Positions 22,729-26,895 of a stretch of DNA of 64,000 nucleotides are shown piece by piece. The number at the start of each line of letters is the position of its first letter. Position 1 is the first letter of the stretch. The stretch is taken from the NCBI RefSeq assembly GCF_056712565.1, contig NZ_CM160072.1. One strand, written 5' to 3'. A program made the translations under genes and the position numbers. Under the pieces are notes generated by a model. That model was not told where the DNA came from. It did not search any database and worked only from the letters and a program-made list of their open reading frames with translations.

Positions 22729-24282
22729 TTAAATTTCAACGACCCGAGACGTCGCATGATGTAATTTTTCCGTAATCACCATTTCAGTGACCCGCTTAAT
22801 ATCGGCATCATTAAAAAAAGCGGTAACATAAGCGACCGGCATAGTGACTGTAGGCAAATTAATGGTCGAAATAATCAGTTCGATATTGTCAGGCAAAACC
22901 TGTGATAAATTCGCTGCTGAAATAACATCAACAATCGTCCATTCAGGAAATGCTCGCAGAATACGGCTTTTCAGTAGATGCGAAGTTCCGATTCCGGTTG
23001 AACAGACCAGTAATACACGTTTACGGGCAATTTGCCGCTCCATCGCAGCCTGAAAATGAACGGTCAGGTAACCCACTTCATCCTCGCTCACTGCATTCTC
23101 ACCCCAGGTTTTAAATACCTGATTCACCACATATTGCGTCAACCGCCAGACATCCGCTAATTCTGCTTTAATATCTTCCAGCAATGGATTACGGATATGA
23201 ATGCGATAATTTAGACGGTTAATCAGCGGCTTAATATGCACCAATAAGCCATCATATAATGCGCTGTCTTCACTAAAATCGCAGTCCACGATGTCACTGA
23301 ATACCGTAATTAAACGCCAGGTAATCAGACGCGCTTCATTGCTGGCCTGCATATGTGAAATAATGCTAACATCTTTTTGTCCATCAATCGCCACACCTGA
23401 TGAAATGATATATTGATAAATAAACCAGACTTCATCATCGGGCAATGTATGTGCAATTCGTTGTTCTATCTTATGAATCATCTGACTGGCAACATTAAAG
23501 ATATTTTCATCATATTGTCTGGTTTGATCTTCTTCTCTTGATAACGCATTCCCGTGCGTGTTGCGATACATCATAATAAGGATGTGAGTAAAAATGTTAA
23601 CGTAATAAGGTTCTCCCAAAGACCAACTTAATTCATTTTCCATATCCAGTAACAATGACTGGACAAATAACACCTCTTCTTCTCCAAAATAATGGACTAA
23701 TGCTTTATAGCTTCCGGGATCCAGACGTGAATACACGACACCTTGCGGCTCATTATGGTTAATAATGCCGTTAATCAGTAATGCCATTGCCTGTCGGACT
23801 TGCCCTTCACTACCTTCAATATGCGTACCACTTGGACTGCGGATCAACGATAACCCCAACGGCGCAAGCCAGGACTCAATTACTCTCAGGTCATTAACAA
23901 TAGAGGCTCCGCTGATAAAGTAGCGTTCTGACAATTTACTGATCGACGTTTCATTCGGTGTTTCACTTAATAACTGCGACGCTATTTTAACGCGCCTGGC
24001 ATTATTCATTACACCATCAATCTCTTCACATTCTGCCACCAACAAATGATCAAGATGCAGCAAATCAGCAATATTCTCCGCACTTAACATCACACCCGCG
24101 CCAGCACGCTTCTCAACATTTATTCTCCATTGTCCCAGCCATTGCTCAAGTAAACGTAAATCACGTTGAATGGTTTTTTCCGAAACATTTAAATAGCCGG
24201 CAATCGTAACAATAGTCGTATATTCCCTTCGAGGTAAAAGGAATCGTAATAATCTGTTTTGTCGCGAGGTAATCATTTGCAT
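22729..24282 (-). CDS. PRD-containing transcriptional regulator of PTS operon (Mga/MtlR-like; HTH + PRD + EIIB-like domain)
   Basis: 517 aa; N-terminal HTH, central PRD-like region, C-terminal CSTGIGTS EIIB-like motif. Confidence 0.75.
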   Translation of the reverse strand: MQMITSRQNRLLRFLLPRREYTTIVTIAGYLNVSEKTIQRDLRLLEQWLGQWRINVEKRAGAGVMLSAENIADLLHLDHLLVAECEEIDGVMNNARRVKIASQLLSETPNETSISKLSERYFISGASIVNDLRVIESWLAPLGLSLIRSPSGTHIEGSEGQVRQAMALLINGIINHNEPQGVVYSRLDPGSYKALVHYFGEEEVLFVQSLLLDMENELSWSLGEPYYVNIFTHILIMMYRNTHGNALSREEDQTRQYDENIFNVASQMIHKIEQRIAHTLPDDEVWFIYQYIISSGVAIDGQKDVSIISHMQASNEARLITWRLITVFSDIVDCDFSEDSALYDGLLVHIKPLINRLNYRIHIRNPLLEDIKAELADVWRLTQYVVNQVFKTWGENAVSEDEVGYLTVHFQAAMERQIARKRVLLVCSTGIGTSHLLKSRILRAFPEWTIVDVISAANLSQVLPDNIELIISTINLPTVTMPVAYVTAFFNDADIKRVTEMVITEKLHHATSRVVEI

Positions 24283-24385
24283 TTTTTACCCTTATCACAG
24301 ATTAAGAAGCCCCATATGGAAGAGCTTCAGTTGCCATCTCTGAGGGTAAATATAAAGCAGAATAATTTCACAACAATACTAAAAT

Positions 24386-24404
24386 CTGTCCGTAATCCGG
24401 ACAG
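24386..24404. promoter_or_regulatory. Palindrome CTGTCCG-TAATC-CGGACAG upstream of the frz-like regulator gene; candidate operator or RNA hairpin
   Basis: Perfect 7-bp inverted repeat read from sequence; role unverified. Confidence 0.3.
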
Positions 24405-24531
24405 TGATAAAACAAAGCAAGGCGGTTAAGGGATATTTTTCAACACAGATCACATTTTCGTGATGAATAATCGTGATCATGCTCGCAAATACGATGGAAG
24501 AAATATTTATTACCAGATGTGAGATTATTTA

Positions 24532-24562
24532 CCGGATACGACACAAAACCATTCGTATCCGG
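24532..24562 (-). terminator. Hairpin CCGGATACG...CGTATCCGG downstream of yicI; likely yicJI terminator
   Basis: 9-bp inverted repeat with 13-nt loop, A/T-rich flank on minus strand. Confidence 0.45.
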
Positions 24563-24576
24563 CATTCTTCAATAGA

Positions 24577-26895
24577 TTACAACGTAATTGTCAGCGCATT
24601 CCCTTGAGGAGTCACCACCAGTCCCTGCTCACTTTCAGCCTGCGAACCGCCTTGCAGACCATTTACTTTCACAATATTGCGCAAGCACAGTGTCCAGTTC
24701 TTCGCCTCGCCCGTACCAGTCACAGTAATCGTGTTGCCAGTACGTGCTGCTTTTAAAGTAAAGATCACCGAACCGTCAGCATCGGGCACTTCACAGACGG
24801 CTTCATGCCCGTCTTGCAGATTAAAGAGGTGGAATGCCGTACCTTCGTGCCACGCGTAATCGGGACGTTGATCGTTGTTGCCCAGCGCCAGTAGGGTGCT
24901 ATCACGCACATAAACGGGCAGACTCAGGAAGCTGTGCTGCTGTTTATGCCAGCGACTACCGTCGAGTTCATCGTTGTGCCACAGGTGTGTCCAGCGACCT
25001 TCCGGCAGGTAGAACTGCACATCGCCCGCTTCTGTGAACACAGGCGCAACCATCACGTTGTCGCCTAACATATATTGACGGTCAAGGTAATCACAAGCCG
25101 GATCGTCCGGGAACTCCATCATCATGGCCCGCATCATCGGCGTACCCCGGGCGTTTGCACGTGCAGCTTCACGATACAGATACGGCATCATGCGGCATTT
25201 CAGTTGCGTGAAGAAGCGCACCACATCACAGGACTCATCATCGTAGGCCCACGGCACACGATAAGATTTGCTGCCATGTAAACGGCTATGGCTGGAAAGC
25301 AAACCAAACGCGCACCAGCGTTTGTAAACGTGCGCCGGAGCGGTATTTTCAAAGCCGCCGATATCGTGGCTCCAGAAGCCAAAACCTGAAAGGCCAATAG
25401 ACAAACCACCGCGCAGGCTTTCCGCCATTGATTCGTAGTTAGCGTAACAGTCGCCACCCCAGTGTACCGGAAATTTCTGCGCACCAACGGAGGCCGAGCG
25501 GGCAAACAAGACGGCTTCTTCCTCACCAACGGTGTCCTTGAGCACGTTCCACACCAGTTCGTTGTAGATGTACGCATAATGGTTATGCATTTTCTGCGGA
25601 TCGGAACCATCAAACCACTGAACATCGGTTGGAATACGTTCGCCAAAGTCGGTCTTAAAGCAATCAACGCCCATCGCGACCAGACCTTTCAGTTTGTCGG
25701 CGTACCATTTGCAGGCATCCGGATTGGTAAAGTCATAAATCGCCAGACCTGGCTGCCATTTATCCCACTGCCACAGCGAACCGTCCGGGCGTTTGAGTAA
25801 ATAACCTTTCTCTTGTAACTCTTTAAAGACGGGGGATTTTTGCCCAATATAGGGGTTAATCCAGACGCAGATTTTCAGCCCTTTCGCTTTCAGACGGCGG
25901 ATCATCCCTTCCGGGTCCGGAAAAGTCAGCGGGTCCCACTCAAAATCGCACCACTGGAAGGCTTTCATCCAGAAACAGTCAAAGTGGAAAACATGCAGCG
26001 GCAGATTGCGTTCCGCCATACCATCGATAAAGCTGTTTACCGTCGCTTCGTCGTAGTTGGTGGTAAATGAAGTGGTTAGCCACAGACCGAAGGACCACGC
26101 GGGCGGCAGCGCCGGACGGCCAGTAAAACGGGTATAACGATCAAGTACCGCTTTCGGCGTCGGGCCGTCGATAACAAAGTATTCGAGATATTCACTCTCA
26201 ACGCTGAACTGTACTTTGGAGACTTTCTCTGATCCCACTTCAAAAGAGACGCATTGAGGATGATTGACCAGTACCCCATAACCACGGTTAGTCATATAAA
26301 ACGGGATATTTTTATACGCCTGTTCAGTACTTGTGCCGCCGTCCCGGTTCCAGGTTTCTACCGTCTGACCATTGCGCACCAGGGCAGTAAAGCGCTCTCC
26401 CAGGCCGTAAACTGTTTCGCCAACGCCAAGATCAAGCCGTTCAAACATATAATTCCGTTGATTATTCGTGTCCTGCACGTAGCCGTTATTTTTCACCTGA
26501 CTACCGGTAATACGTTCGCCGTTGCGCAGAAAATCCAGTGACCAGAACTCACCTTTGCTGACACGCGCACTTAAGTTGCCACTTTTAAACTCAGCGTAAC
26601 GTTCTGTGTTTTCGATAGTGACCTTCACGTCCTGCAAAATATTGAGCGGGTAATGAGGACCGTTATTCAGCGCCCCCTGAAAATGCTCAATCCGTACACC
26701 GACAATACCTTCCTGTGGGGAGAAAAAGCGCAGCGTAAATAAAGGCGTATCAAGCTGCCAGGTACGTTCACGCACATCACGAGGGGCAGCATAGACCACC
26801 ATTTCATTATCCTGCTGTTCAACCTCGAACACCTGAAGCGGGTGAATCAAATTGAGGCCAGGTTGAATCAACCAGTTTCCGTCGCTAATTTTCAT
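24577..26895 (-). CDS. yicI: Alpha-xylosidase (GH31)
   Basis: 772 aa; GH31-like sequence; synteny with yicJ. Confidence 0.9.

Follow-up and report, generated by a model that had tools for sequence, protein, structure and literature searches.

The closest described counterpart of the element analysed here, a palindrome upstream of the frz operon in a 64-kb window (the whole 64,000-nucleotide stretch of contig NZ_CM160072.1, NCBI RefSeq assembly GCF_056712565.1), is the operator of MtlR, a regulator that carries phosphotransferase system (PTS) regulation domains (PRDs). In Bacillus subtilis this operator consists of a short palindrome within 11-bp conserved flanks, spans 42 bp in total and lies 7 bp from the −35 hexamer, and MtlR induces its own gene from a promoter under catabolite control (PMC3217849). 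Like the MtlR operators at PmtlA and PmtlR of B. subtilis and Geobacillus stearothermophilus, the frz element combines a palindrome with conserved flanks that extend toward the weak −35 hexamer of a housekeeping-sigma promoter, which at frz is predicted. The frz regulator FrzR also resembles MtlR in its domains, namely an N-terminal helix-turn-helix (HTH), an Mga HTH, two PRDs and an enzyme IIB (EIIB)-like domain, and in joining catabolite control to autoactivation, both predicted for FrzR. The two systems differ in the site itself (TTGTCACA-N4-TGTGCCAA in the MtlR oligonucleotides of PMC3217849, TGTCC-N7/8-GGACA plus the box TTTAGTATTG at frz), in the C-terminal enzyme IIA (EIIA) domain of MtlR, which FrzR lacks and for which a separate EIIA gene follows frzR, and in the catabolite input, which comes through a cre/CcpA site for MtlR and would come through sites resembling those of the cAMP receptor protein (CRP) at frz. 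Binding has been demonstrated experimentally for MtlR, whereas for FrzR it is deduced from sequence.

Other described systems share single aspects of the locus. Mga, AtxA, AcpB, MgaSpn and MafR, PRD-containing virulence regulators from Gram-positive pathogens, have the same build as FrzR, with two N-terminal HTH domains, two PRDs, an EIIB-like C-terminus and no EIIA domain. At the uhpT promoter of E. coli, CRP acts from near −103.5 together with UhpA, so that a distal CRP site is combined with a specific activator beside the −35 hexamer. The frz promoter region has a comparable layout, with a CRP-like site near −103.5 and a candidate site for a specific activator between it and the −35 hexamer, but its activator would be controlled through PRDs and the PTS rather than as a response regulator, and in E. 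coli the proximal CRP-like site has only a weak right half. The ribonucleic antiterminator (RAT)/terminator leaders of BglG, SacY and LicT are alike only in the PRDs of their regulators and in a hairpin with T residues; unlike in these systems, FrzR has no CAT domain, the frz element lies upstream of the predicted promoter, and it shows neither covariation nor an Rfam match.

We propose that the palindrome is probably the core dyad of a composite operator, bound by the PRD activator that the operon itself encodes (FrzR), at a CRP-assisted sigma-70 promoter. The operator, TGTCC-N7/8-GGACA-N3-TTTAGTATTG, would occupy approximately −62 to −32, abutting and overlapping a weak −35 hexamer (TTGTTG), and the position directly upstream of −35 is where class I and class II activators and MtlR-type regulators bind. 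PTS phosphorylation of the PRD and EIIB domains would presumably set the activity of FrzR, which would then bind the operator and recruit RNA polymerase, while CRP–cAMP, bound at ∼−103.5 and ∼−136.5, would bring the promoter under catabolite control. The operon begins with frzR, so that activation by FrzR would also amount to positive autoregulation. Sequence comparison is our basis for inferring where transcription starts, which protein is bound and in which direction it regulates. The element is ordinary in type, an activator operator at a catabolite-controlled promoter, but newly delineated.

Conservation of the palindrome across orthologous promoters

A sequence-only reading of this DNA had singled out a perfect inverted repeat at 24386–24404 in a 294-bp region upstream of the regulator gene, and both descriptions proved exact when checked against the sequence. 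The repeat consists of the 7-bp arms CTGTCCG (24386–24392) and CGGACAG (24398–24404) around the 5-nt spacer TAATC, and the region (24283–24576) is the 294-bp gap from the yicI stop codon to the ATG of the frz regulator gene. Taken alone, the palindrome is what chance would produce: perfect 7-bp inverted repeats with 3–10-nt loops number 50 in the window, equivalent to 0.23 per 294 bp, and at least one such repeat arose in 17% of 2000 dinucleotide shuffles of the region (P = 0.17). Its significance lies in its conservation across genera. The window has a single TGTCC-N7/8-GGACA core, where 0.06 would be expected.

A protein search recovered FrzR orthologues at 52–96% identity in many Enterobacterales, Vibrio and Celerinatantimonas, and an alignment-based scan with one genome per species yielded 79 loci, from which 67 distinct orthologous promoters were compared; information content and pair counts were taken from a 49-sequence alignment (A3). 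TGTCC…GGACA turned up repeatedly in an initial search for perfect hairpins 5′ of regulator genes. A directed search then placed TGTCC-N8-GGACA-N3-TTTAGTATTG upstream of the regulator in all 67 promoters, with N7 in Escherichia, and did not find the motif at distant paralogues or Firmicute homologues. The half-sites carry 1.94–1.97 bits per position and the box TTTAGTATTG carries 2.0 bits in each of its 10 columns, compared with 0.27 bits for the 7–8-nt dyad spacer, 0.23 for the 5′ flank and 0.32 for the promoter spacer. Near-invariant half-sites around a free spacer are the signature of protein–DNA contact. The elements of the region to which we refer below, from the upstream end, are as follows.

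24472–24487, minus strand: distal CRP-like site TGCGAGCATGATCACG, centred at ∼−136.5 from the predicted start, matching 8/10 positions of TGTGA-N6-TCACA
24439–24454, minus strand: proximal CRP-like site TGTGATCTGTGTTGAA, centred at ∼−103.5, with a perfect left half and a weak right half (7/10 positions)
24405–24413, minus strand: semi-conserved A/T-rich block GTTTTATCA, adjoining the dyad on its upstream side (columns 16–25 of A3, mean 0.85 bits vs 0.23 for the flank)
24386–24404, no strand: the palindrome, candidate FrzR operator dyad, at ∼−62 to −44, read on the minus strand as TGTCC (24403–24399) and GGACA (24391–24387) with a 7-nt spacer
24374–24383, minus strand: invariant box TTTAGTATTG, 3 nt 3′ of the dyad, whose final TTG opens the −35 hexamer
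24371–24376, minus strand: predicted −35 hexamer TTGTTG (3/6 consensus), with TTG invariant and the next three bases varying across the 67 promoters
24349–24354, minus strand: predicted −10 hexamer TATATT, at the TAnnnT position that is fixed across promoters

The conserved unit is the 5-bp dyad TGTCC/GGACA together with the box TTTAGTATTG, and not the 7-bp arms. Among the seven hairpin pairs, three never vary in the 49 sequences and two more deviate in one or two of them, and the two pairs that extend the arms are unpaired in 33/49 and 32/49. The sequence-only reading had named a motif search at orthologous operons among its checks and a non-conserved palindrome as its refutation; the search recovered the core in every one of the 67 promoters, so that this condition did not refute the reading. 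Its description of the unit needs trimming, since the 5-bp core is conserved, the two additional pairs are not, and the adjacent box had been missed.

Within E. coli, the 60-mer found in phylogroup B2 is identical in 1169 of the 1603 frz-positive records, and in three other sampled E. coli alleles and one Escherichia sp. the outermost pair is lost by a one-sided change while TGTCCG…CGGACA is kept. The perfect 7-bp form is thus specific to one E. coli lineage. Spacing also sets the genus apart: in Escherichia the dyad spacer is N7 rather than N8 and the promoter spacer 16 bp rather than 17 bp, each 1 bp below almost all other genera, and the Erwinia persicina/rhapontici group shares the N7 dyad spacer but keeps the 17-bp promoter spacer. 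In E. coli, these shorter spacers may affect how the operator is phased and how strong the promoter is.

Predicted promoter and CRP-like sites

Beginning with the last three bases of the box, a TTGnnn hexamer is followed by TAnnnT at a distance of exactly 17 bp in 65 of the 67 promoters and of 16 bp in both Escherichia promoters. The second hexamer most often reads TATATT (34 promoters), TAAATT (14) or TAGATT (11), with T1, A2 and T6 as its only invariant positions. Because the spacing is fixed and the variation is that expected of hexamers, we interpret TTGnnn/TAnnnT as a genuine −35/−10 pair. The earlier description of the region as the frz promoter agrees with this conserved pair. Transcription is predicted to start near 24342 on the minus strand, with a leader of ∼59 nt, and the dyad, at ∼−62 to −44, would therefore not be transcribed from this promoter. 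The sequence analysis establishes the element itself, that it is invariant, that its geometry with respect to the −35/−10-like hexamers is fixed, and that it lacks RNA-type covariation.

A sigma-54 promoter with a LevR-type activator was considered and rejected: FrzR has no AAA+ domain, and no TGGCAC-N5-TTGCW was found when the fetched loci were scanned over the last ∼600 bp ahead of the regulator start, a scan that left out the window itself and a few loci with a different start coordinate.

Upstream of the dyad lie two CRP-like sites, 33 bp apart, both of which have better-matching counterparts in other genera. A TGTGA-type site centred at −101.5 to −105.5 is present in nearly all Enterobacterales orthologues and matches 9–10 of 10 positions in Pantoea, Erwinia and Brenneria. 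At the place of the distal site, Superficieibacter has TGTGATCGCTATCAC, and Citrobacter and Phytobacter carry related blocks. The direct repeat ATCACGA (plus-strand TCGTGAT, at 24458–24464 and 24471–24477) is partly accounted for by the CRP-like sites.

Regulator type and its link to the motif

FrzR is annotated automatically as a "BglG family transcription antiterminator", a label that its domain content marks as misleading. Pfam assigns it an HTH_11 domain (residues 7–63), an Mga HTH (100–169), two PRD stretches and a PTS_IIB domain (422–498), and the same search gave no CAT_RBD match, that is, no CAT RNA-binding domain. A sequence search of the PDB with FrzR matched AtxA (4R6I), AcpB (9ATX) and the LicT PRDs. 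Because FrzR has HTH domains and no CAT domain, we place it with the DNA-binding PRD regulators of the Mga/MtlR class and not among the BglG-type antiterminators. Its most conserved part is segment 96–136 in the Mga HTH, with 88% identity compared with 64% overall, in line with what is expected of a segment that would read an invariant DNA site.

The motif tracks the regulator and not its neighbours. The upstream gene is yicI in only some genera, and in Vibrio, Celerinatantimonas, Erwinia psidii and one "Klebsiella sp." the operon has a different EIIC and no aldolases while the motif is unchanged. Across 732 kb of fetched loci, the exact dyad is confined to frz-type promoters, plus a second full copy in two Vibrio loci that includes the −10-like hexamer and sits before PTS genes. 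In a paralogous regulator subfamily (38% identity), the upstream region is laid out alike with a different dyad, a weak comparison that involves two sequences only.

The second copies have a recognisable arrangement. In the Vibrio and "Klebsiella sp." loci (L040, 5590–6660; L042, 5660–6470; L074, 5590–6490), the order is regulator, EIIA, second promoter copy and EIIA-IIB-IIC, and the second promoter copy carries a remnant of the first and last codons of the regulator. The arrangement resembles the product of a tandem duplication in which the second regulator gene then lost its interior. The second promoter copy of L074 has a degenerate left half-site.

The sequence-only reading had offered the palindrome as an operator for the PRD regulator or another factor. 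The conservation pattern and the position beside −35 bear out the operator part, and binding by FrzR itself is suggested by the sequence comparisons above.

Weighing alternative explanations

Several observations count against a FrzR operator at this promoter. Mga/AtxA-type regulators of Gram-positive bacteria are reported generally to have no clear consensus site and to behave in a manner resembling nucleoid-associated proteins (PMC8560693); compared with that group, the frz candidate site is sharply defined and invariant, and belongs to a single promoter of a Gram-negative sugar PTS operon. In Escherichia the dyad spacer is 1 bp shorter than nearly everywhere else, and binding could differ there. 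The second Vibrio copy, being a duplication that carries a regulator remnant, is not fully independent evidence for a regulon. A consensus sigma-70 scan of 24100–24800 found no promoter, so that the promoter is deduced from conservation; the scan missed the proposed hexamers because they match the consensus at only 8/12 positions. Weak consensus matches are usual in activator-dependent promoters, though they are no proof of one. Finally, TTGTCC and TAGTAT within the conserved block each match 4/6 consensus positions in most genera, lie 18 bp apart (17 bp in E. coli) and, in a plain comparison with the consensus, score no worse than the downstream pair.

This last point would suit a reading in which the block is itself the core promoter, with TTGTCC or CTGTCC as −35 and TAGTAT as −10 at 17–18 bp, and the dyad is a repressor- or MerR-type operator over the −35 hexamer and the spacer. 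We regard such an arrangement as improbable: TTTAGTATTG is invariant even at bases that RNA polymerase does not read, the downstream pair varies as real hexamers do, and the characterised HTH/PRD regulators MtlR, Mga and AtxA are activators. Conservation yields a protein-contact pattern without naming the protein, and the nearby CRP-like sites are taken as a sign that global regulators act on the promoter, so the operator might serve another conserved DNA-binding protein encoded elsewhere, such as a global or carbohydrate regulator. This too is unlikely, since the motif occurs only with a FrzR-type regulator gene, across varied neighbourhoods and two operon types, and is absent from the remainder of both the 64-kb window and the 732 kb of loci; moreover, FrzR is the only regulator encoded in the operon, provided that the 310-aa, kinase-sized ROK protein carries no HTH. 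To our knowledge, TGT-N11/12-ACA with these half-sites fits none of the E. coli consensus sequences for CRP, FNR, Cra, Mlc/NagC, LexA, GntR-type regulators or the T-N11-A of LysR.

Readings at the RNA level fare worse. A minus-strand intrinsic terminator, or insulator, that protects frz from yicJ–yicI read-through would fit the window sequence well: CTGTCCGGATTACGGACAG followed by ATTTTAGTAT on the minus strand is the sole terminator-like site in the 24100–24800 scan, its 7-pair stem (five G-C pairs), 5-nt loop and T-rich tail ATTTTAGTAT have terminator form, in the B2 allele only, and its predicted RNA hairpin energy of −12.4 kcal/mol is the most stable of the family. The family median, however, is ∼−7 kcal/mol for a stem of five pairs and a loop of 8 nt, including in genera with yicI upstream; the outer pair is broken in the other E. 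coli alleles, the T-rich tail is the invariant box, conserved for a different reason, and yicI has a hairpin of its own at 24532–24562. We therefore consider a terminator very unlikely as the conserved property, and a weak, lineage-specific terminator may be a side effect in B2 strains. The sequence-only reading had also raised an RNA hairpin, and a RAT-type target in the frz leader would accord with the automatic label of the regulator and with the capacity of the sequence to fold. Such an element is highly improbable, given that FrzR has HTH_11 and Mga domains and no CAT domain, that the dyad lies 5′ of the predicted −35 hexamer and start, and that most orthologues fail to form the extra pairs. 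No covariation emerged from the 49-sequence alignment (shuffles reached or exceeded the observed score in 452/500 trials), in which the five core pairs give no signal because they hardly vary, and Rfam returned no match at E ≤ 1. As for a chance palindrome without function, the abundance of perfect 7-bp repeats noted above (50 in the window, P = 0.17 per region) speaks for it, yet it is scarcely credible when the core is kept in 67 distinct promoters while neighbouring columns are saturated with substitutions.

Leader and genomic context of the frz operon

Returning to the proposed FrzR-activated promoter, the region is bounded by the following features.

24577–26895, minus strand: yicI (open reading frame), immediately upstream of the 294-bp gap
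24532–24562, minus strand: terminator-type hairpin of yicI, CCGGATACGA/TCGTATCCGG with an 11-nt loop (inverted repeat I1), the upstream limit of the frz regulatory region
24306–24328, minus strand: stem-loop GAAGCTC-TTCCATATG-GGGCTTC in the predicted 5′ untranslated region (UTR), with analogues of other sequence in other genera
24283–24305, minus strand: conserved end of the leader, TTAATCTGTGATAAGGGTAAAAA, which holds the ribosome-binding site AAGGG (24289–24293) and is kept across Enterobacteriaceae orthologues
22729–24282, minus strand: frzR, the first gene of the operon, encoding FrzR (517 aa; domains by Pfam and annotation)

The 5′ UTR stem-loop is followed, right ahead of the ATG, by the strongly conserved TTAATCTG...TAAGGGTAAA. 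Stems at a similar position in the leader are GGAGC/GCTTC in Citrobacter and AGCGC/GCGCT in Klebsiella, which may reflect covariation. RNAalifold on a MAFFT alignment of the 5′ UTR gave no consensus structure, because lineage-specific hairpins fail to align. Several Citrobacter species (L013, L015, L016, L018 and L069) carry an insertion of about 124–202 bp in the frzR 5′ UTR, ahead of the ATG and 3′ of the −10 hexamer, and the core of this insertion, AATCCCCTGAACGTACATAAGTACGTGACTGGGGTGAGCG, resembles an enterobacterial repetitive intergenic consensus (ERIC) element.

Gene annotation was taken from E. coli ATCC 11775 (phylogroup B2), which matches the region at 100%. It lists xanP and yicH, eight minus-strand genes, and then yicI, yicJ and tRNA-Sec; the eight genes encode a D-lyxose/D-mannose family isomerase, a ROK protein, two aldolases, PTS IIC, IIB and IIA, and the "BglG family transcription antiterminator". 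This set is the frz operon of extraintestinal pathogenic E. coli (ExPEC) under its literature name, with the synteny R-IIA-IIB-IIC-aldolase-aldolase. The operon has been tied to ExPEC fitness, expression of type 1 fimbriae, cell invasion and virulence traits (PMC8777976, PMC12928451). Our literature search, in which the primary frz paper (J Bacteriol 2009) was not included, returned no account of the frz promoter or of how the operon is switched on.

The frz region was found in 1603 of 5426 complete E. coli genomes (∼30%) and is absent from K-12, in which yicH and yicI converge on a 52-bp spacer with the hairpin CCGGGTACG/CGTACCCGG. The hairpin at 24532–24562, 128 bp ahead of the palindrome, is homologous by position to this K-12 yicH/yicI hairpin (locus L003, 6180–6206), with a compensatory G>A/C>T change and a different loop, and the border between frz-positive and frz-negative genomes falls at or within it. 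A repeat belonging to an island end or a mobile element was rejected as an account of the dyad, which lies ∼130 bp inside the boundary set by the yicI hairpin in surroundings where only the half-sites are conserved.

Besides Escherichia, yicI lies directly 5′ of the frz regulator in Citrobacter, Klebsiella, Superficieibacter, Mangrovibacter and Phytobacter ursingii (loci L004–L032). Because this adjacency is found in several genera, we consider it ancient within Enterobacteriaceae, and the frz operon may have been lost by K-12-like E. coli instead of being acquired by B2 strains. Individual strains also depart from the common arrangement: in the clinical E. coli isolate GN04171 (L002, 3248–4064), the insertion sequence IS1 replaces the promoter, the operator and most of frzR, leaving 64 bp beside yicI, and the match in ATCC 25922 (H19) lacks the 29 bp adjoining the frzR start.

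Implications for PRD regulators and the frz operon

The analysis offers base-level predictions for the frz promoter, namely a −10 and a −35 hexamer, a start near 24342, two CRP-like sites and, as candidate operator for FrzR, a 32-bp site, and it shifts the label of the regulator from "BglG family antiterminator" toward a DNA-binding activator. We give roughly even chances to a broader proposal, in which FrzR and its ∼65 orthologues would make up a branch of Mga/AtxA-type regulators in Gram-negative bacteria (two HTH domains, two PRDs, an EIIB-like domain and no EIIA domain) that reads the 32-bp site TGTCC-N8-GGACA-N3-TTTAGTATTG. The site is a clean candidate consensus for the Mga/AtxA-like architecture, whose DNA specificity in Gram-positive pathogens is notoriously unclear. 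If the proposal is true, this branch would be a tractable model of how such an architecture reads DNA and links PTS phosphorylation with transcription, and the operator would provide a handle on the regulon and the inducer of an operon linked to ExPEC fitness.

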